IMG/VR virus record: IMGVR_UViG_2718218131_000005
Length of the DNA stretch: 39,971 nucleotides
From: a virus
Taxonomy: Duplodnaviria; Heunggongvirae; Uroviricota; Caudoviricetes
Strand: one strand, 5' to 3'
Shown here: piece after piece, positions 5,134 to 13,262 of the stretch
How the letters are laid out: each line of letters starts with the position of its first letter
Numbering within the stretch: the stretch's first letter is position 1
The notes under the pieces: generated by a model
Databases searched by the model: none
What the model saw: only the letters and a program-made list of their open reading frames with translations
What the model was told of the DNA's origin: nothing
Program-made: the position numbers and the translations under genes

Positions 5134-6021
5134 TCAGGCTGCCAGATCATCGTTTCTGATGGAAGCATAATAAGCTTTTTCTGCTTCTGCCGGAGGGATA
5201 TGACCCAGCCTTCCCAGCAATCGTCGATTGTTATACCAGTCCACCCACGTGAGTGTGGCCAGTTCCACTTCTGCACGGTTTTTCCAGCTCTTACGGTGTA
5301 TTACCTCCGCTTTGTAAAGACCATTGATGCTCTCCGCCATCGCGTTGTCATACGAGTCACCTGTACTCCCTGTTGATGCCAGTAATCCGGCTTCTTTTAG
5401 TCGCTCCGTATAGGCCAGTGATACATACTGAGAACCTTTATCACTGTGATGGACTGTGCCGGACGGCCGACGGGCCCACAACGCCTGCTCCAGTGCATCC
5501 AGCACGAATGTTGTTTCCATGGATGATGAGACCTGCCATCCCACGATGTATCCGGCGAACACATCAATGATGAACGCCACATAAACGAAGCCCTGCCATG
5601 TGCTTACCCAGGTAAAATCAGCCACCCACAACTGGTCTGGACGTTCTGCCACGAACTGACGGTTTACGCGGTCGCATGCGGCAACGGCTTTCCGGCTGAC
5701 GGTAGTGCGGACCTTTTTACCCCGGAGAACACCGGCAAGTCCCATAACTGCCATGAGGCGCGCCACTGTACATCTGGCCACTCTGATACCTTCCCGTAAC
5801 AACTGACGCCAGACTTTACGCACACCGTATACCTGGTGATTTTCATCGTATACGCGCTGTATCTCTTTCTTCAGCCAGTCATCGTGCTGCGCACGGGCAC
5901 TGCGTTTATCCGGATGATGTCGCTGTTGCTGACAGTGGTAATACGTTGACGGGGCAATATGCAGTTCACTGCATACCGGTCCGACCCCGTACTGCTCACG
6001 CAGCTTATCCAGCAGCGGCAT
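5134..6021 (-). CDS. IS3-family transposase OrfB (DDE catalytic part; normally made as an OrfAB fusion by -1 frameshift)
   Basis: 295 aa with an integrase-core DDE region; -1 frame relative to orfA, overlapping the A-rich end of orfA. Confidence 0.85.
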   Translation of the reverse strand: MPLLDKLREQYGVGPVCSELHIAPSTYYHCQQQRHHPDKRSARAQHDDWLKKEIQRVYDENHQVYGVRKVWRQLLREGIRVARCTVARLMAVMGLAGVLRGKKVRTTVSRKAVAACDRVNRQFVAERPDQLWVADFTWVSTWQGFVYVAFIIDVFAGYIVGWQVSSSMETTFVLDALEQALWARRPSGTVHHSDKGSQYVSLAYTERLKEAGLLASTGSTGDSYDNAMAESINGLYKAEVIHRKSWKNRAEVELATLTWVDWYNNRRLLGRLGHIPPAEAEKAYYASIRNDDLAA

Positions 6022-6347
6022 TATTTTTTCCAGAGGCGGTCGAACTCCGCCTTCGCAAAATAAGCGGAAGCCTGGCGAAGGATATCGTTACTGCGGCGCA
6101 GTTCACGATTTTCACGTTCCAGCTCTTTCAGACGCTGACGTTCAGCGGTGGTGAGTCCACCATCACCACTCCCGGTATCCCGCTCATGCTGACGAACCCA
6201 CACACGCAGAGTCTCTGGTGTACAGCCAATCTTTGGGGCAATGGAACAAATTGCCGCCCATTGTGAGTCATATTCGCCCTGACTTTCCAGAACCATACGA
6301 ACTGCCCGTTGACGGACCTCGGGGGAAAAACGTGTATTTTTAGTCAT
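6021..6347 (-). CDS. IS3-family transposase OrfA (helix-turn-helix / leucine zipper part)
   Basis: 108 aa [57 protein letters not shown]..., matching IS629-group OrfA as recalled. Confidence 0.85.
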
Positions 6348-6401: not shown

Positions 6402-6496
<95 letters not shown>

Positions 6497-6751
6497 GATG
6501 TGCCAGATCAGAATCCCTGGCTACTGCAATCACAATCCCGAAACCTCTGTGCTGGCGCATTACAGGCTGGCGGGGACGTGCGGAACAGCGACAAAACCAC
6601 ACGATATGCAGGCGGCGATAGCCTGTAGCTCATGCCACGATCTAATCGACGGGCGGGTAAAAACCAGCGATTACACCAAAGAAGAATTGCGCCTGATGCA
6701 TGCTGAAGGGGTTTTTCGCACACAAGAAATCTGGAGAAAGAAAGGTCATTT

Positions 6752-7294
6752 ATGATTTACCCAACGAATACAGGAAAAAGCGGAGAACACCTTCGCCTCA
6801 CCACGCTGGAAAGTGTCTGGATTCAGGGAAAACTACGTATGTGGGGGCGCTGGTCGTATATTGGCGGTGGCAGGTCAGGGAATATGTTCAATCAGTTGTT
6901 GGCATCCAAAAAACTGACGAAAACAGCCATTAATGAAGCCCTGCGCAGAATGAAAAAAGCGGGAATAGAGAAAGCTGAGCTGGAAGCGTTTTTGCGAGAG
7001 ATGATCAACGGCAAGCAAAAGAGCTGGCTGGCGCATTGTACTGATGCAGAGGCGTTATGTATTGATCGAGTCATAAGTGAGGTGCTGGCAGAGCATCCAG
7101 GATTGATTTGCATTCTCCGGCAACGCTATGAAGGGCGGGGGATGACTAAGCGCAAAATGGCTGAATTGCTAAATGATGCACACCCAGAGTGGTGTTTTAG
7201 CACATGCGAAAAACGGATTGCTAATTGGTTAGCTGTTGCTGAGTATGCCCTATATATTCCCATGCGTGAATCATTTGCTGAGAAAATGGCTTGA
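6752..7294 (+). CDS. Putative late-gene antiterminator Q (Q82/Q21-like family)
   Basis: 180 aa; position directly upstream of the late promoter/terminator region and lysis cassette; WGRW motif and cysteine pairs resemble Q-family proteins; start overlaps the ybcO stop (ATGA). Family call is tentative. Confidence 0.5.
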   Translation: MIYPTNTGKSGEHLRLTTLESVWIQGKLRMWGRWSYIGGGRSGNMFNQLLASKKLTKTAINEALRRMKKAGIEKAELEAFLREMINGKQKSWLAHCTDAEALCIDRVISEVLAEHPGLICILRQRYEGRGMTKRKMAELLNDAHPEWCFSTCEKRIANWLAVAEYALYIPMRESFAEKMA

Positions 7295-7340
7295 TTTCTT
7301 ACGTATAAACTGCTTCAATTTTGCTATGCTTCGCAAAGCT
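7291..7340 (+). promoter_or_regulatory. Candidate late promoter (PR'-like) just downstream of Q
   Basis: TTGATT at 7291-7296 and TTCAAT at 7314-7319 with 17 bp spacing; weak match, placed by analogy with lambdoid PR' location. Confidence 0.25.
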
Positions 7341-7374
7341 GTATCGCGAGGCGGATTGCAGACATGGACATCGT

Positions 7375-7401
7375 AAAAAAACCGCTTAATGCGGTTTTTT
7401 T
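7375..7401 (+). terminator. Rho-independent terminator (tR'-like), flanked by A- and T-tracts so potentially bidirectional
   Basis: AAAAAACCGC-TTAAT-GCGGTTTTTTT. Confidence 0.55.
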
Positions 7402-7721
7402 ACGTCAGGAAAGCAGGGGAGAATGCTGCTAGTTGGGCAACTGGTCTTTCTGCTCCAAATTATAACAGAGACCAGTTATAGTTTCGGTGCTGTGTTTTTT
7501 TTACAATATTGTGATAACACATTGCTGGCGGGAGTTTTGATATTTCTTGGCAGGGGCTGATGATGCGTTATCCTGATGTCGTCAACTCATATAAAATGAG
7601 ATGAGAGATCATTGCAGGGTGGTTTGTAATTCGCTGTTTAGCGGGACAATATGTTGTCTGATACAAGACACCCGACGCCTCAGATTACTATAATAAAGAC
7701 GAAGCATCCTTTGTATTGACC

Positions 7722-7747
7722 AACCGCCTGTTTAGGCGGTTCTTTTT
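7722..7747 (+). terminator. Second rho-independent terminator-like hairpin in the Q-to-lysis intergenic region
   Basis: AACCGCC-TGTTTA-GGCGGTT followed by CTTTTT. Confidence 0.45.
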
Positions 7748-8279
7748 GGGCTGGTTTATTGTATGCCAAATGATTATTAAAAAGGTTGTGTTAATAACAA
7801 AATCCGAAATAATATGCCTGCATATTTTTATCTTGCTTATATTCTGCATATTGTGCATAGCAGGCTCATCCCTGCAATCAAAACTGTATGATGAGTATTT
7901 TTTGTTTTCCTTTTTTCCAGTCATCTGATGATGACCTGCTTCTTTTTAATCCGGATCGACATCAGTTTTTTAAGATAATTCCTGCGAGTTATATGCATAA
8001 ATACCACAAACTCCGCATTTTATGTGGTTGGGAGTTGCCGGGCGCGCAGTGAGTTTGCTAAGAAAACTCCTGCATGGTGAATCCCCCTGTGCGGTGGGGT
8101 GATACCATTAACCTTTTCTGTCGCCGACAGGTATCACGAACATTTTGTTCACCGGGAGGCACCCGGCACCATGCACTTCAATAGATTCTCTCCACATTAT
8201 GGATATTCTTTCAGAATATCCCACGCAGACTTTGTGTAAATGTTAACAAATGTGCGTTTTATTTGATCTGATTCGCTGT

Positions 8280-8309
8280 TTGAGCGTCCAAAACAACGGT
8301 ATATATAAT
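8280..8309 (+). promoter_or_regulatory. Candidate sigma-70 promoter for the first TolA-like lipoprotein gene
   Basis: TTGAGC (8280-8285), 18 bp spacer, TATAAT (8304-8309); GAGGAAAAATG ribosome-binding site follows. Confidence 0.35.
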
Positions 8310-8338
8310 CCTTTACTATATGACATATGTGAGGAAAA

Positions 8339-8767
8339 ATGGGTTTTCGTAGCGCATCAATTCTTACGTTGATTATTAGTGGGATTATTATCGGGTGCAC
8401 TGATGCTGTATCGACAAATTATCATGACCGTACATCATATTACTCCGATAAAGCAATAGAGACACAGTATGTGAGTTCATCTGAACGTACTTCTGATGTT
8501 AGTGAGGATATCCGTCTGTATGCCCATCAAATCAAGAGCGCCATCGAAAAACAGTTCGGGGATGCGAGTAAGTATTCAGGAAAAGAGTGTACACTGAGAA
8601 TGCATATGGCCCCGAATGGCCTTCTACTGGAGGTTAAAAGAGAAAGTGGAGACCTCGATTTATGTCGTGAAGCGATGAATGCGATAAAGAATGCTGATAT
8701 ACCTGCCCCCCCTTCGCCGGAAGTATATAAAGTATTTCAAAATGGGGTGCTGGATTTTAAACCCTGA
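8339..8767 (+). CDS. Lipoprotein with a C-terminal domain resembling TolA domain III
   Basis: Signal peptide with lipobox IIGC; the C-terminal 80 aa (YAHQIKSAIEKQFGDASKYSGKECTLRMHMAPNGLLLEVKRESGDLDLCREAMNAIKNADIPAPPSPEVYKVFQNGVLDFKP) align residue-for-residue with the E. coli TolA C-terminus as I recall it. Confidence 0.8.
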   Translation: MGFRSASILTLIISGIIIGCTDAVSTNYHDRTSYYSDKAIETQYVSSSERTSDVSEDIRLYAHQIKSAIEKQFGDASKYSGKECTLRMHMAPNGLLLEVKRESGDLDLCREAMNAIKNADIPAPPSPEVYKVFQNGVLDFKP

Positions 8768-8917
8768 TATTTATTGTTTTGTAATAAACGGTTTCGGCTT
8801 AGGTTTGTTCTGACACAGCTACGGCACTGAGCTAAATTTAGCGGATAGTCAGCTCTGAGCCAGTGGCGGACGTAACAACTACTATTGCTGAGATTTTAAT
8901 GGATTGAGGAGCAAGAA

Positions 8918-9313
8918 GTGGGATTAAAGAAAATCGTTATGTTGACTTTTTGGGTCGGTTTTGTTGCGGGATGCACACCTTTACACCCTTCAGATTGCCA
9001 CAAAACTACTGCTACAGGTAGTTGCAGTTCAGGACGCTGGGATGATCAGGATGAATGGGGGGCGCAAGCGCGGGGAATCAGAGCTGCAATTAATGCCAAA
9101 CTTGATGAGCCGCATAACTGGAAAGGGAAAAAATGCAGGTTGCATATGGAATTCTCTCAGGATGGCACGGCGTTAAAAATATCTACCAGTAACGGTGATA
9201 AAGCCTATTGCGAAGCGATAAAGTCCGCAGCTCATAAAGCCAAATTTCCGGCCTTCAACAATCCGGAAGTCTACAGAGATTTTCAGAAATCTGGCTTTGA
9301 CATGCGAGGTTAG
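8918..9313 (+). CDS. Second, divergent lipoprotein with a TolA domain III-like C-terminus (paralog of 8339-8767)
   Basis: GTG start after a GAGGAG ribosome-binding site; lipobox VAGC; C-terminal KKCRLHMEFSQDGTALKISTSNGDKAYCEAIKSAAHKAKFPAFNNPEVYRDFQKSGFDMRG shares the conserved Cys and EVY/F motifs of the upstream paralog. Confidence 0.75.
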   Translation: MGLKKIVMLTFWVGFVAGCTPLHPSDCHKTTATGSCSSGRWDDQDEWGAQARGIRAAINAKLDEPHNWKGKKCRLHMEFSQDGTALKISTSNGDKAYCEAIKSAAHKAKFPAFNNPEVYRDFQKSGFDMRG

Positions 9314-9438
9314 CTCTTCAATTACTATATCTCATTCATAGCAAACTGACAGATTTGATGATGTTCTATATACGAAACCTGTGATGTCAAGTCTGAGCTA
9401 ATACAAATAAACATAATATCAGAGAAATACATTTTATT

Positions 9439-9461
9439 AGCTCGCTACGGCGAGCTTTTTA
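9439..9461 (+). terminator. Rho-independent terminator closing the lipoprotein island
   Basis: AGCTCGC-TACG-GCGAGCT followed by TTTTTAT. Confidence 0.55.
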
Positions 9462-9564
9462 TATTGCATCGTCTCCAGCATATATATCAATTAAGGCTCT
9501 GATTGATGTGTCTGAAAGCCTACACATAATAACTATGCCATCCGTTCCGTGCGGAGGTGAGGCT

Positions 9565-9780
9565 ATGAAATCCATGGACAAAATTTCAACAGGCATTGCC
9601 TACGGCACCTCCGCAGGCAGTGCTGGCTACTGGTTTTTACAGTTGCTCGATAGAGTAACTCCGTCACAGTGGGCTGCAATCGGTGTGCTGGGTAGTCTGG
9701 TATTTGGCCTGCTGACGTACCTGACAAACCTTTATTTCAAGATTAAAGAAGATAAGCGCAAGGCTGCGAGAGGTGAATAA
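9565..9780 (+). CDS. S: Phage-21-type pinholin (S21-like), dual-start motif MKSM
   Basis: [71 protein letters not shown]; GGAGGTGAGGCT ribosome-binding site before the ATG at 9565. The track ORF start at 9508 is probably too far upstream. Confidence 0.85.
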
Positions 9781-10277
9781 TGCCTCCATCATTACGAAAA
9801 GTCGTTGCTGCTGCTATTGGTGGCGGAGCAATTGCTATAGCATCAGTGTTAATCACTGGCCCAAGTGGTAACGATGGTCTGGAAGGTGTCAGCTACATAC
9901 CATACAAAGATATTGTTGGTGTATGGACTGTATGTCACGGGCATACAGGAAAAGACATCATGCTCGGTAAAACGTATACCAAAGCAGAATGCAAAGCCCT
10001 CCTGAATAAAGACCTTGCCACGGTCGCCAGACAAATTAACCCGTACATCAAAGTCGATATACCGGAAACAACGCGCGGCGCTCTTTACTCATTCGTTTAC
10101 AACGTGGGTGCTGGCAATTTCAGAACATCGACGCTTCTTCGCAAAATAAACCAGGGCGATATCAAAGGCGCATGTGATCAGCTACGTCGCTGGACATATG
10201 CTGGCGGTAAGCAATGGAAAGGTCTCATGACTCGTCGTGAGATTGAGCGTGAAATCTGTTTGTGGGGTCAGCAATGA
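9780..10277 (+). CDS. R: SAR (signal-anchor-release) endolysin, phage-21 R-like lysozyme
   Basis: 165 aa with an N-terminal Gly/Ala-rich weakly hydrophobic SAR segment ([20 protein letters not shown]) and a lysozyme-like core; start overlaps the holin stop. Confidence 0.9.
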
Positions 10278-10738
10278 ACAGAGTAACCGCGATTATCTCC
10301 GCTCTGGTTATCTGCATCGTCGTCTGCCTGTCATGGGGTGTTAATCATTACCGTGATAACGCCATCGCCTACAAAGAACAGCGCGACAAAAATGCCAGAG
10401 AACTGAAGCTGGCGAACGCGGCAATTACTGACATGCAGATGCGTCAGCGTGATGTTGCTGCGCTCGATGCAAAATACACGAAGGAGTTAGCTGATGCGAA
10501 AGCTGAAAATGATGTTCTGCGTGATGATGTTGCCGTTGGTCGTCGTCGGTTGCACATCAAAGCAGTCTGTCAGTCAGTGCGTGAAGCCACCACCGCCTCC
10601 GGCGTGGATAATGCAGCCTCCCCCCGACTGGCAGACACCGCTGAACGGGATTATTTCACCCTCCGGGAACGACTGGTAATGATGCAGGCCCAACTTGAAG
10701 GTGCTCAGCAATACATAACCGAGCAGTGTTTAAAGTAA
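10274..10738 (+). CDS. Rz: Spanin inner-membrane subunit Rz
   Basis: [55 protein letters not shown]..., closely resembles lambda Rz; start overlaps the endolysin stop. Confidence 0.9.
10494..10679 (+). CDS. Rz1: Spanin outer-membrane lipoprotein Rz1, embedded in the +1 frame of Rz
   Basis: [52 protein letters not shown]..., lipobox VVGC and proline-rich region as in lambda Rz1. Confidence 0.85.
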
Positions 10739-10875
10739 AATCTTAACTACAATATGATTCATTTTGATGATTGTTTCATAAGGAACAGTGAAGTAAGATC
10801 TAAGAGGAGTTAAATTTTATACAGTATAATCATAATATTGCAGCAAGGTGGTTATAATTGAAAGAATATTTAGAT

Positions 10876-12333
10876 ATGAATACATCTCATGTAAGAGTTG
10901 TTACTCATATGTGTGGGTTCCTGGTTTGGCTCTATAGTCTTTCAATGTTGCCACCAATGGTTGTAGCATTGTTTTATAAAGAAAAAAGCCTGTTCGTTTT
11001 CTTTATAACTTTCGTTATATTTTTTTGCATTGGTGGCGGAGCGTGGTATACAACTAAGAAATCTGGCATTCAATTACGTACCCGTGATGGGTTTATTATA
11101 ATTGTAATGTTTTGGATTTTGTTTTCTGTTATTAGTGCATTCCCTTTATGGATTGACTCAGAACTTAATTTAACGTTCATTGATGCTCTGTTTGAAGGGG
11201 TTTCTGGAATAACAACAACAGGAGCAACTGTAATTGATGATGTTAGTTCATTACCTCGGGCATATTTGTACTATCGGTCACAGTTAAATTTTATAGGTGG
11301 TTTAGGAGTTATTGTTCTGGCGGTTGCTGTATTGCCATTATTGGGTATTGGTGGTGCAAAGCTTTATCAGTCAGAAATGCCGGGGCCATTTAAGGATGAC
11401 AAACTCACTCCCCGCCTGGCCGATACGTCACGGACACTGTGGATAACTTATTCTTTATTAGGTATTGCTTGTATTGTCTGTTATAGACTTGCAGGAATGC
11501 CTTTGTTTGATGCTATTTGTCACGGGATTTCCACAGTTTCGCTTGGTGGTTTCTCAACTCATAGCGAGAGTATCGGATATTTTAATGACTATTTGGTTGA
11601 GCTGGTGGCTGGTTCTTTTTCCCTGCTATCGGCTTTCAACTTCACTCTTTGGTATATTGTTATTAGCAGGAAAACGATAAAACCTTTAATCAGAGATATT
11701 GAACTTCGTTTCTTTCTGTTAATAGCCTTAGGGGTGATCATTGTTACCTCTTTCCAGGTCTGGCATATAGGTATGTATGACTTGCATGGAAGTTTTATTC
11801 ATTCGTTTTTTCTTGCCAGCTCCATGCTCACTGATAATGGTTTAGCTACGCAGGATTATGCAAGTTGGCCCACGCACACGATAGTGTTTTTGCTGTTGTC
11901 AAGTTTCTTTGGGGGATGTATAGGTTCAACTTGTGGTGGAATTAAGTCACTTCGATTTCTTATACTTTTCAAACAAAGCAAACACGAGATAAATCAGCTT
12001 TCTCATCCCAGAGCGTTGTTGAGTGTAAATGTAGGAGGGAAGATAGTTACAGATCGTGTAATGAGGTCTGTATGGAGTTTCTTTTTTCTTTATACTCTCT
12101 TCACGGTGTTTTTTATACTGGTGTTAAATGGTATGGGATATGATTTTCTTACATCATTTGCAACAGTGGCTGCATGTATTAATAATATGGGATTAGGTTT
12201 TGGGGCTACTGCATCGTCATTCGGAGTGCTTAATGACATTGCAAAATGTTTAATGTGCATAGCTATGATTCTTGGTCGCCTTGAAATTTATCCTGTTATT
12301 ATATTGTTTTCAGGTTTTTTTTGGCGCTCCTAA
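10876..12333 (+). CDS. trkG: Trk-system potassium uptake protein TrkG (TrkH family)
   Basis: Multi-pass membrane protein beginning MNTSHVRVVTHMCGFLVWLYSL..., matching Rac prophage TrkG of E. coli K-12 as recalled; AT-rich relative to the surrounding phage genes; sits directly after Rz/Rz1 as in Rac. Confidence 0.95.
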   Translation: MNTSHVRVVTHMCGFLVWLYSLSMLPPMVVALFYKEKSLFVFFITFVIFFCIGGGAWYTTKKSGIQLRTRDGFIIIVMFWILFSVISAFPLWIDSELNLTFIDALFEGVSGITTTGATVIDDVSSLPRAYLYYRSQLNFIGGLGVIVLAVAVLPLLGIGGAKLYQSEMPGPFKDDKLTPRLADTSRTLWITYSLLGIACIVCYRLAGMPLFDAICHGISTVSLGGFSTHSESIGYFNDYLVELVAGSFSLLSAFNFTLWYIVISRKTIKPLIRDIELRFFLLIALGVIIVTSFQVWHIGMYDLHGSFIHSFFLASSMLTDNGLATQDYASWPTHTIVFLLLSSFFGGCIGSTCGGIKSLRFLILFKQSKHEINQLSHPRALLSVNVGGKIVTDRVMRSVWSFFFLYTLFTVFFILVLNGMGYDFLTSFATVAACINNMGLGFGATASSFGVLNDIAKCLMCIAMILGRLEIYPVIILFSGFFWRS

Positions 12334-12470: not shown

Positions 12471-13262
12471 ATGAGCGAGAAATTAAAGATAGTCTATCGC
12501 CCATTACAAGAATTGTCACCGTATGCGCACAACGCCAGGACGCACAGCCCTGAGCAGGTGGCACAACTGGTAGAAAGTATTAAGCAATTCGGCTGGACTA
12601 ATCCGGTGCTGATTGACGAAAAGGGCGAAATTATTGCGGGTCACGGTCGTGTTATGGCGGCTGAAATGCTCAAAATGGATTCTGTTCCGGTCATTGTTCT
12701 GTCTGGCCTGACGGATGAGCAGAAAAAGGCGTACCGCCTGGCAGATAATCGCCTGCCGATGAATGCTGGCTGGGATGAAGATCTGTTGCGGATGGAGCTG
12801 TCGGACCTAATCAATGCTGATTTTGATGTCTCCCTGACAGGCTTCATCCCGACAGAAATTGATGAACTGTTGACGGATGTTTTGCCCGGTACAGGAAATG
12901 AGGAGGAGCCGTATACGACGAAAATTGATACGCCTGTTTATGAGCCGTCGGGCGGTAAACCGGATATCAGTGAACTGTACGACGATACGAAAACTCAGGA
13001 GCTGATCAGCCGGATACGTTCGGCGTCCCTTGAGCCTGATATTGAGAAATTCCTCCTGTGTGCGGCAGAACGTCACACGGTGTTTAATTTCAGCAGAATT
13101 GCGGACTATTACGCTCACGCCCCCTCTGAAATTCAGTGTTTTTTCGAGGAGTCGGCGCTGGTGATCATTGATTATCAGCAGGCTATTGAAAATGGATTTG
13201 TCCGGATGACGCAGCGCATGGTGGAGATCATGCATGGTGGTGAGGAGGAGGAATATGCGTGA
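12471..13262 (+). CDS. ParB/sulfiredoxin-like N-terminal domain protein (ParB-like nuclease domain), full length
   Basis: N-terminal motifs typical of the ParB N-domain (…PYAHNARTHSPEQV…VLIDEKGEIIAGHGRVMAA…); acidic C-terminal tail. The K-12 Rac ynaK at this position is a short fragment of such a protein. Confidence 0.8.
   Translation: MSEKLKIVYRPLQELSPYAHNARTHSPEQVAQLVESIKQFGWTNPVLIDEKGEIIAGHGRVMAAEMLKMDSVPVIVLSGLTDEQKKAYRLADNRLPMNAGWDEDLLRMELSDLINADFDVSLTGFIPTEIDELLTDVLPGTGNEEEPYTTKIDTPVYEPSGGKPDISELYDDTKTQELISRIRSASLEPDIEKFLLCAAERHTVFNFSRIADYYAHAPSEIQCFFEESALVIIDYQQAIENGFVRMTQRMVEIMHGGEEEEYA

Follow-up and report, generated by a model that had tools for sequence, protein, structure and literature searches.

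TolA Domain III and the Systems That Engage It

The C-terminal domain III of TolA (TolAIII; residues 334–421 of the Escherichia coli protein; structures 1TOL, 2X9A, 3QDP/3QDR, and 1S62) is a docking site with two ligand-binding edge strands. The N1 domain of the filamentous-phage protein g3p, colicin N, and the N-terminus of TolB bind the C-terminal edge strand β3 (residues 415–421), mainly by hydrogen bonding to the backbone of D418 and K420; the site of colicin A is the other edge strand, L375–P380 (β2), together with K368 and K396 (PMC4339652; PMC3365938; PMC7391070). TolAIII has an affinity of 1 µM for colicin N and of about 40 µM for TolB, a difference of about 40-fold (PMC4339652). Two tandem genes that encode versions of this domain, here called ORF1 and ORF2, lie in a 39,971-nucleotide stretch of DNA (IMG/VR virus record IMGVR_UViG_2718218131_000005; the window refers to this whole stretch), the DNA of a lambdoid E. 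coli prophage. Profile searches, alignments, and structural models show that the predicted products are small secreted lipoproteins, each consisting of a putative lipid anchor, a tether of 25–35 residues, and a stand-alone TolA domain III.

Free domain III has been exported beside normal TolA in engineered cells (Levengood-Freyermuth, Click and Webster, 1993; Wan and Baneyx, 1998), which is the closest functional precedent for the action expected of ORF1. The engineered domain was soluble, overproduced, and identical to that of the host, whereas the window proteins are natural, diverged, carried by a mobile element, and predicted to be lipid-anchored. The same contact between g3p-N1 and TolAIII blocks Tol-dependent entry when N1 or full-length pIII is present in the periplasm: TolA is sequestered, the cells become resistant to colicin A, and phage uptake falls by 4 logs (PMC10424213). 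This is the mirror image of the arrangement considered here, in that an invader ligand saturates the TolA of the host, whereas a copy of the host domain would saturate the ligand of the invader.

Llp of phage T5 and Cor of phages phi80, N15, and HK022 are small phage outer-membrane lipoproteins, and exclude superinfecting phages from the periplasmic side; Cor does so by blocking FhuA. As a by-product, bacteriocins that use the same route, such as colicin M via FhuA, are also excluded. No relation in sequence or fold to ORF1 or ORF2 was found. The target blocked by Llp and Cor is a receptor; the docking-site mimicry proposed here would act one step further along import. Lambdoid morons (stx, nanS-p, nmpC in DLP12, bor, and lom) resemble the two genes in occupying the same or a nearby slot, in their promoter–gene–terminator logic (the promoter of the two genes being a candidate), in low GC content, and in presence or absence among related phages. 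Several of them encode outer-membrane or envelope proteins, but none encodes a TolA-domain protein. The domain and the dominant-negative principle are known; what appears to be new is a natural and widely mobile family, predicted to be lipid-anchored, for which no functional study was found in a full-text literature search (subscription journals lay outside its coverage).

Identification of TolA Domain III in ORF1 and ORF2

The two genes and their parts are listed below (positions in the window).

8339–8767 (+): ORF1, lipoprotein of 142 aa; ribosome-binding site GAGGA at 8331–8335
8339–8398 (+): ORF1 signal peptide and lipobox, aa 1–20
8399–8500 (+): ORF1 linker, aa 21–54
8501–8764 (+): ORF1 TolA domain III, aa 55–142
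8918–9313 (+): ORF2, lipoprotein of 131 aa with GTG start; ribosome-binding site GAGGAG at 8906–8911
8918–8974 (+): ORF2 signal peptide and lipobox, aa 1–19
8975–9052 (+): ORF2 Cys-rich linker, aa 20–45
9053–9310 (+): ORF2 TolA domain III, aa 46–131

An earlier note, made by a model from the letters of the window, had proposed that both proteins end in a domain resembling TolA domain III, to be checked by profile search and by structural superposition, and both checks uphold this. Against the TolA C-terminal family PF06519 (gathering cut-off, 25 bits), ORF1 scores 82.6 bits (E 2.4e-23; profile positions 4–96 of 96) and ORF2 scores 54.6 bits (E 1.3e-14; positions 10–92 of 96). Residues 55–142 of ORF1 align without gaps to residues 334–421 of E. 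coli TolA, with identity at 52 of 88 positions (59%; E 5e-28), and residues 51–129 of ORF2 align to TolA 341–419 with identity at 27 of 79 (34%; E 5e-9); ORF1 and ORF2 share 32% identity. The domain cysteines of TolA, Cys363 and Cys388, correspond to C84 and C109 in ORF1 and to C73 and C98 in ORF2, and do not vary in the alignments of 19 relatives for ORF1 and 25 for ORF2. The motifs that had been described as common to both ORFs (CTLR, AP(D/N)G(M/L)LL, PxPPS, VYxVF, and LDFKP) are all present in ORF1; ORF2 retains them in part only, as CRLH, QDGTAL, PAFNNPEVYRDF, and FDMRG.

AlphaFold2 models of the two proteins have pLDDT values >90 over the domains, and the tethers are predicted to be disordered. 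The best match in the Protein Data Bank (PDB) is 2x9a_B for the ORF1 model (root-mean-square deviation (rmsd) 0.6 Å; TM 0.95) and 3qdp for the ORF2 model (rmsd 1.1 Å; TM 0.92). The top Foldseek matches (3qdp, 3qdr, 2x9a, 1tol, and 1s62) lie at an rmsd of 0.6–1.8 Å for ORF1 and 1.1–1.4 Å for ORF2, and C-terminal domains of TonB follow at a distance as the next-best structural matches of both models. Family, three-stranded α/β fold, both cysteines, and edge strands are shared with TolAIII, the edge strands most closely by ORF1.

The proteins differ from TolA in all other parts. NCBIfam TolA equivalog models match the ORFs only via their last 79–98 profile positions: with NF007065 (cut-off, 213 bits), ORF1 scores 107.8 bits over the last 94 positions and ORF2 scores 53.7 bits, and ORF1 exceeds the lower cut-off of TIGR02794 (75.6 vs. 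59.45) through its C-terminal domain only. The inner-membrane helix of TolA, which carries the TolQ-binding motif and couples the protein to TolQ and TolR, and the long, periplasm-spanning Ala/Lys/Glu-rich helical domain II were sought in ORF1 and ORF2 and neither was found; the span from the lipobox Cys to the domain is only 25–35 residues in both proteins. The genes also lie outside a tol-pal operon, their neighbors being phage Q and lysis genes. Because the inner-membrane anchor and helical domain II are absent, ORF1 and ORF2 cannot be TolA, and because these parts are replaced by a signal peptide of the lipoprotein type and a short tether, the domains should be unable to transmit TolQR force.

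Lipoprotein Signals and Predicted Location

Both N-termini have the features of signal peptidase II substrates, namely a positively charged n-region and a hydrophobic h-region followed by a lipobox of the pattern [LVI][ASTVI][GAS]C. ORF1 begins with MGFRSASILTLIISGIIIGC, in which R4 forms the n-region, ILTLIISGIII the h-region, and IIGC the lipobox with predicted lipidation at Cys20; ORF2 begins with MGLKKIVMLTFWVGFVAGC, with K4 and K5, IVMLTFWVGFV, and VAGC with predicted lipidation at Cys19. The lipobox Cys is invariant among the 19 relatives in the ORF1 alignment and the 25 in the ORF2 alignment, which supports the lipoprotein assignment first read from these two lipoboxes. Residue +2 after the lipid-modified Cys is Thr in both proteins, with no Asp, so that by the +2 rule the outer membrane is the predicted location of ORF1 and ORF2. 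The proposal of a membrane-tethered periplasmic domain is thereby corrected as to the location, which is predicted to be the outer membrane.

The GTG at 8918 is supported as the start of ORF2, since plasmid copies carry ATG at this place after a conserved GAGGAG. GAGGAG-N6-GTG is kept in the Citrobacter and Serratia copies, and Enterobacter copies have a variant ribosome-binding site. In RefSeq, the NCBI annotation pipeline PGAP places the start at an internal ATG, 8939 (NZ_CP033250.1, 9740–10114); this start, which is 21 nt late and deletes the positively charged beginning of the signal peptide, is rejected on the evidence of the plasmid copies with ATG at the equivalent of 8918. The same annotation labels ORF1 a tolA pseudogene (NZ_CP033250.1, 9308–9568).

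Selection on the Domains and on the ORF2 Tether

Among ORF1 alleles, the dN/dS ratio is 0.2–0.35 in the domain and 0.3–0.9 in the tether. ORF2 copies from the window, pO157, IncK plasmids, Enterobacter, Citrobacter, and Serratia have dS values of 0.5–1.1 and dN values of 0.04–0.08, with dN/dS of 0.04–0.12. These ratios indicate that ORF1 and ORF2 are both real genes under selection. The tether of ORF2, CxPLHPSxCHKTTATGSCSSGRWDDQDEWG, contains two extra cysteines and is near-invariant across five genera at dS values of up to 1.1. AlphaFold pLDDT is <50 over this conserved segment. Judged by its alignment, the ORF2 tether is too conserved for a mere spacer.

Ligand-Binding Faces

The residues at the binding faces compare as follows (TolA numbering).

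β3 strand, 415–421: TolA APLDFKP; ORF1 GVLDFKP; ORF2 SGFDMRG
Colicin A box, 375–380: TolA LLDIKP; ORF1 LLEVKR; ORF2 ALKIST
Position 368: TolA K; ORF1 H; ORF2 E
Position 396: TolA K; ORF1 K; ORF2 H
First helix: TolA YAGQIKSAIESKF; ORF1 YAHQIKSAIEKQF

The ligand-binding edge strands are kept, and near-exactly so in ORF1. Because its residues are near-identical on both faces, ORF1 should be a close mimic of E. coli TolAIII and is expected to bind the same ligands. The ligand of ORF2 is less predictable, because the strand-forming β3 is kept but the colicin A face is lost. ORF2, which has diverged and is mobile on its own, may have another ligand than ORF1.

Genomic Context and Layout of the Cassette

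The neighboring features of the late region are given below.

6468–6755: YbcO-like gene, upstream of Q
6752–7294 (+): Q-type late-gene antiterminator of the DUF1133 type (PF06576, E 2.5e-107; PF06530 Phage_antitermQ, E 8.6e-06)
8148–9781 (+): recombining module, 99% identical in phage mEp460_ev081 (blastn of the window)
8280–8309 (+): candidate sigma-70 promoter, TTGAGC-18-TATAAT, with 10 of 12 consensus matches
9439–9461 (+): intrinsic terminator that closes the cassette upstream of the holin; 7-bp GC-rich stem (9439–9456) and T-run
9565–10738 (+): lysis cassette, downstream boundary of the slot (PF04971, PF00959, PF03245)
9565–9780 (+): S21-type holin
9780–10277 (+): lysozyme with an apparent N-terminal signal-anchor
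10262–10738 (+): Rz, with embedded Rz1 lipoprotein at 10494–10679

Q is the upstream boundary of the cargo slot, and the gap of about 1 kb between Q and ORF1 has no convincing genes. The placement of the cassette between Q and the lysis genes, as first suggested, is confirmed by the profile matches of Q (PF06576/PF06530) and of the S21-type holin. The module shared with mEp460_ev081 comprises the 3′ part of an STnc100-like element, the candidate promoter, ORF1, ORF2, the terminator, and the S21-type holin.

The layout of promoter, genes, and terminator is that of a moron, in which the promoter part is a candidate. The hairpin at 9439–9456 with its T-run has a folding energy of −13 kcal/mol (z −4.4), and 0 of 200 shuffles were equally stable. 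No terminator was found between ORF1 and ORF2, where the spacer folds no better than its shuffles (z −0.8), and co-transcription is therefore assumed. The promoter-like site recurs upstream of the ORF1 allele of 91% identity, where a single position of the −10 region differs. The GC content of the island is 0.417, against 0.486 for the window, which places it in the lowest 6% of windows of the same size. The description of the island in the earlier note, as AT-rich and with its own candidate promoter and terminator, thus holds well for the terminator, moderately and not strikingly for the composition, and for the promoter as a candidate with 10 of 12 matches only. Composition unlike that of the flanks and exchange among related phages, both traits of a moron, were found.

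Several further elements lie in this part of the window. A full-length Rfam match to the small RNA (sRNA) family STnc100 (RF02076; 86.6 bits, gathering score 47, E 3e-18) lies shortly before the cassette at 8042–8228 (+). It spans position 8148, the left boundary of the module common to the window and mEp460_ev081, and may belong to the late-operon leader. About 400 nt downstream of Q, a promoter-like AAGACA-18-TATAAT (7665–7694, +; 10 of 12) is followed after about 30 nt by a terminator hairpin with T-run (7722–7748, +; −14.3 kcal/mol, z −2.4), and this pair (7665–7748) is a candidate late promoter with a Q-overridden terminator. Sub-threshold matches to the Salmonella prophage sRNA isrK at 7328–7456 on both strands (about 20–22 bits vs. 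a gathering score of 50; E 0.16–0.39) are probably due to chance. Directly 3′ of Rz/Rz1 lies trkG, for a TrkH-family potassium transporter (10858–12333, +; GC content 0.38), a second low-GC cargo gene of the late region in the same arrangement as in the Rac prophage, and after it a ParB-like gene (12471–13262). An IS3-family element occupies 5134–6347 (−; orfA 6021–6347, orfB 5134–6021), with the Rfam ALIL frameshift pseudoknot at 6000–6066 (59 bits). In strain ECCHD184, a homologous prophage, to which window homology starts only at 6496, has an intact DUF1367 gene here, so that in the window the IS3-family element has apparently replaced or disrupted this gene. In mEp460_ev081, the S21-type holin is mislabeled 'Phage tail fiber protein' (LR597641.1, 7366–7581).

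Distribution and Mobility of the Two Genes

With presence counted at ≥80% coverage, the cassette occurs in 774 of 5,426 complete E. coli genomes, or about one in seven; it is ≥99% conserved in 786 records. Phage mEp460_ev081 has the same cassette and holin with another Q and another endolysin. In IMG/VR, every contig that carries a 99–100% ORF1 allele and reaches far enough also shows ORF2 and the holin at fixed spacing (about 30 contigs are long enough for all three genes), and Q and the endolysin vary. Among the public phage genomes of INPHARED, one record only carries the genes, and the genomic context was therefore drawn from IMG/VR and from bacterial genomes.

Each gene also occurs alone. 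Other ORF1 alleles (91% and 65–68% identical) are solitary in the same slot between Q and the holin, beside cargo such as an AraC-type regulator, TfpB, PmrD, or a NanS-p-type esterase, and divergent ORF1 alleles are found in a further 136 complete E. coli genomes. ORF2 relatives that are 78–89% identical are solitary on pO157, on IncK/I plasmids, and on Enterobacter, Citrobacter, and Serratia chromosomes. The segment 8888–9316, which covers ORF2, is the only one common to the window, pO157, and an IncK2/Z conjugative plasmid (87%), and in this conjugative plasmid the ORF2 relative directly follows the relaxase. The chromosomal neighborhoods of solitary ORF2 relatives are unrelated and differ in every genus examined, and one relative lies at the edge of a degraded prophage adjoining umuDC-like genes. 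The ORF2 family is not phage-specific, being found also on plasmids and on chromosomes of other genera. The suggestion that two paralogs stand for two specificities of a pair is refuted by the solitary ORF1 alleles in the slot and the solitary ORF2 relatives on plasmids and chromosomes; since each gene occurs alone elsewhere, the tandem is better described as two independent, stacked units.

On a Serratia marcescens contig (6001–8736), a solitary ORF2-like gene lies after nrdDG and directly upstream of genes for a GmrSD_N-domain and a HEPN-domain protein, an arrangement that resembles a small defense islet.

The Wider Family and the Klebsiella Cloacin Plasmids

Relatives were detected by tblastn on 1,300 plasmid records, 660 of them from Klebsiella and 547 from Escherichia. 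A HMMER scan of 1.84 billion representative sequences gave 333 hits, and among the best 146 of these, 67 are short (100–175 aa). At least 45 of the 67 short representatives have a lipobox and several others have an ordinary signal peptide, so that the family includes at least 45 further clusters, defined at 50% identity, of short TolAIII lipoproteins. Named short relatives come from Kosakonia, Hafnia, and Dryocola, and all are annotated 'TolA'. Two distant representatives were left out of the context comparison, since their contigs are too short to show informative neighbors. PHROG 5772, of unknown function, matches both ORFs end to end.

In Klebsiella pneumoniae, ColRNAI cloacin plasmids of about 10 kb encode a TolAIII lipoprotein that begins MRLIPFILLALCSPLLLTAC and is divergent from the cloacin–immunity–lysis operon. 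Its partner is a Sec-secreted, stand-alone TonB C-terminal domain (PF03544, E 9e-11), and the stop codon of the lipoprotein gene overlaps the start of the partner gene in an ATGA junction (p1_090045, CP043367.1, 3687–4420). By their domain content, the predicted products supply one free docking domain for each import pathway, Tol and TonB. 'TolA and TolB family proteins' are merely mentioned for a Klebsiella cloacin plasmid in the literature (PMC10269471).

A conjugative Klebsiella plasmid of the MPF_I type, pSP968_1 (5229–6258), carries a TolAIII lipoprotein subtype directly after a secreted thioredoxin-fold protein (DsbC/TraF-like), a pairing that could connect this subtype with disulfide bonding of its domain or with assembly of the pilus. 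Two published expression records were considered and set aside: a ciprofloxacin transcriptome of enterohemorrhagic E. coli links 'TolA' to EDL933_2012, which the table there calls a tail fiber protein and which could not be tied to this family, and the tolA of an O157 microarray study in soil and water was not shown to be the prophage gene.

Possible Functions of ORF1 and ORF2

The best explanation, with a probability of roughly 45%, is that ORF1 and ORF2 are decoys for Tol-dependent colicins and filamentous phages. Free TolAIII domains at their predicted anchorage in the outer membrane would meet ligands as these emerge into the periplasm, namely g3p-N1 and the translocation domains of the colicins A, N, E1, and K, which belong to group A. 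Such ligands normally dock onto TolA by β-strand addition; they would instead be captured and held unproductively, and because the decoy domain has no link to the TolQR motor, the ligand could not be pulled in. The captured ligand would not be imported, and the lysogen would therefore be tolerant. A small dose of decoy could be selective and disturb Tol-Pal little, because TolAIII binds colicin N at 1 µM and TolB at 40 µM. In a lysogen, transcription would start from the cassette's own putative promoter and be halted by the terminator before the holin, and this terminator would shield the lysogen from read-in to the holin. After induction, Q-modified polymerase arriving from upstream would probably pass the terminator and raise ORF1 and ORF2 expression. 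Cells with TolAIII in the periplasm reportedly tolerated colicins E1, E2, E3, and A in the work of Levengood-Freyermuth (1993), whereas colicin D, which depends on TonB, was not tolerated. Filamentous phages such as Ff and If1 use F and I pili as their primary receptors, and conjugative plasmids build pili; the presence of ORF2 relatives on conjugative plasmids would fit a decoy function. The cloacin plasmids with a free docking domain for each import route and the Serratia copy beside GmrSD and HEPN genes would fit as well. The retained edge strands, the leakiness that exported TolAIII causes in wild-type cells (PMC6195910), and the reciprocal block by periplasmic g3p-N1 (PMC10424213) lend the proposal indirect support. 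It also fits that a prophage dies if a colicin kills its host.

Several points weigh against this proposal. Free TolAIII in the periplasm makes E. coli leaky (PMC6195910), so that decoy expression would carry a cost. The 10 of 12 match upstream of ORF1 counts as a promoter candidate only, because a consensus scan found 11 such sites in the region where 7.0 were expected. The colicin A face of ORF2 is diverged from that of TolA and not conserved with it, and in several Enterobacter genomes ORF2 relatives sit in a stable, ordinary non-phage neighborhood. The strict constraint on ORF2, including its Cys-rich tether, could be explained equally well or better by a conserved partner in the cell. Neither protein matched the defense models of PADLOC-DB 2.0 up to an E value of 1, and the TolAIII/TonB pair, present in 379 plasmids, belongs to a single ColRNAI lineage and counts as one observation.

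The same leakiness, with its tol-like envelope at excess periplasmic TolAIII (PMC6195910), is what would be expected if the tethered domains antagonized Tol-Pal, the main alternative but a rather unlikely function, in which they would bind the N-terminal strand of TolB (the physiological ligand of TolAIII), uncouple TolB-Pal from TolQRA, and loosen the outer membrane. A late, Q-driven high level would then aid the final step of lysis or vesicle release, and a low level would tune vesiculation of the lysogen. The cassette does lie inside the late operon in tight linkage to the holin, its products keep the TolB-binding β3 strand (PMC7391070), and proline mutants in TolA β3 that lose TolB binding have a tol phenotype (PMC4339652); yet the promoter-like site and the pre-holin terminator point to expression in the lysogen and not in lysis alone, ORF2 relatives occur on plasmids and chromosomes that have no lysis program, and most lambdoid phages lyse without such genes. 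The weak TolA–TolB affinity (about 40 µM) also implies that antagonism would require abundant protein. One protein could combine both roles, as a decoy at low dose and as an antagonist at high dose. A fold that captures exposed β-strands of outer-membrane partners, with TonB C-terminal domains as next-best matches and a predicted outer-membrane location, might instead act from the periplasm, seize a Ton-box-like or plug strand of a porin or outer-membrane receptor, and so inactivate the receptor for superinfecting tailed phages and bacteriocins in the manner of Cor and Llp. This is improbable, and more attractive for ORF2, whose surface is diverged from TolA and yet strongly conserved in its own family. 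The phage lipoprotein Llp is described as blocking FhuA and protecting against colicin M (bioRxiv 10.64898/2026.03.26.714494); however, ORF1 and ORF2 have no sequence relation to Cor or Llp and match another PHROG, no candidate receptor was identified, and ORF1 keeps the TolA ligand faces almost unchanged, which points to TolA ligands.

Strong purifying selection across genera, the stable neighborhood in Enterobacter, and the named relatives on Kosakonia, Hafnia, and Dryocola chromosomes would also suit ORF2-type proteins that serve as housekeeping or stress lipoproteins of the envelope (e.g., Tol-Pal or CpoB accessories) and hitch-hike on mobile elements, with ORF1 as a phage-borne derivative that has no defense role. 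We regard this as quite improbable: the neighborhood differs in each genus examined, as for a mobile single-gene insert, the family recurs on 1,300 plasmid records and in phage cargo slots, and to our knowledge the ORF2 family is absent from E. coli K-12. That the genes are decayed, functionless fragments of a captured tolA is scarcely credible, even though PGAP describes ORF1 as 'tolA, incomplete, missing N-terminus' (NZ_CP033250.1) and NF007065 matches it below the cut-off over its last profile positions only. Intact frames, individual ribosome-binding sites, and signal peptides and lipoboxes that tolA lacks stand against decay, as do dN/dS values well below 1, conservation of ≥99% in 786 records, and at least 45 further clusters of the same architecture. 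The pseudogene call is rejected, being contradicted by architecture and selection.

Significance

A decoy function for ORF1 and ORF2 would have consequences beyond this prophage. Group A colicins and filamentous phages all need TolA domain III, and protection by a natural decoy would extend to many of them at once, regardless of the surface receptor used. Carriage of ORF1 and ORF2 could explain part of the widespread and unexplained colicin tolerance of wild strains, and decoys could affect attempts to combat pathogenic E. coli and Klebsiella with colicins, engineered bacteriocins, or filamentous phages. For research on Tol-Pal, the ORFs offer a natural dominant-negative tool. The analysis also corrects a systematic misannotation, in which the names 'TolA', 'tolA pseudogene', and 'colicin import membrane protein' are attached to proteins that cannot be TolA. 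As a tentative generalization, to which we give slightly less than even credence, mobile elements of Enterobacterales, from prophages and conjugative or bacteriocin plasmids to chromosomal inserts of one gene, may widely carry free, envelope-tethered docking domains that confer a receptor-independent 'import-pathway immunity'; these would be TolA domain III lipoproteins and, in at least one case, an adjacent secreted TonB C-terminal domain. If this is true, import-pathway immunity would be a layer of defense that is missing from current defense catalogs, and one that targets bacteriocin classes and pilus-dependent filamentous phages.

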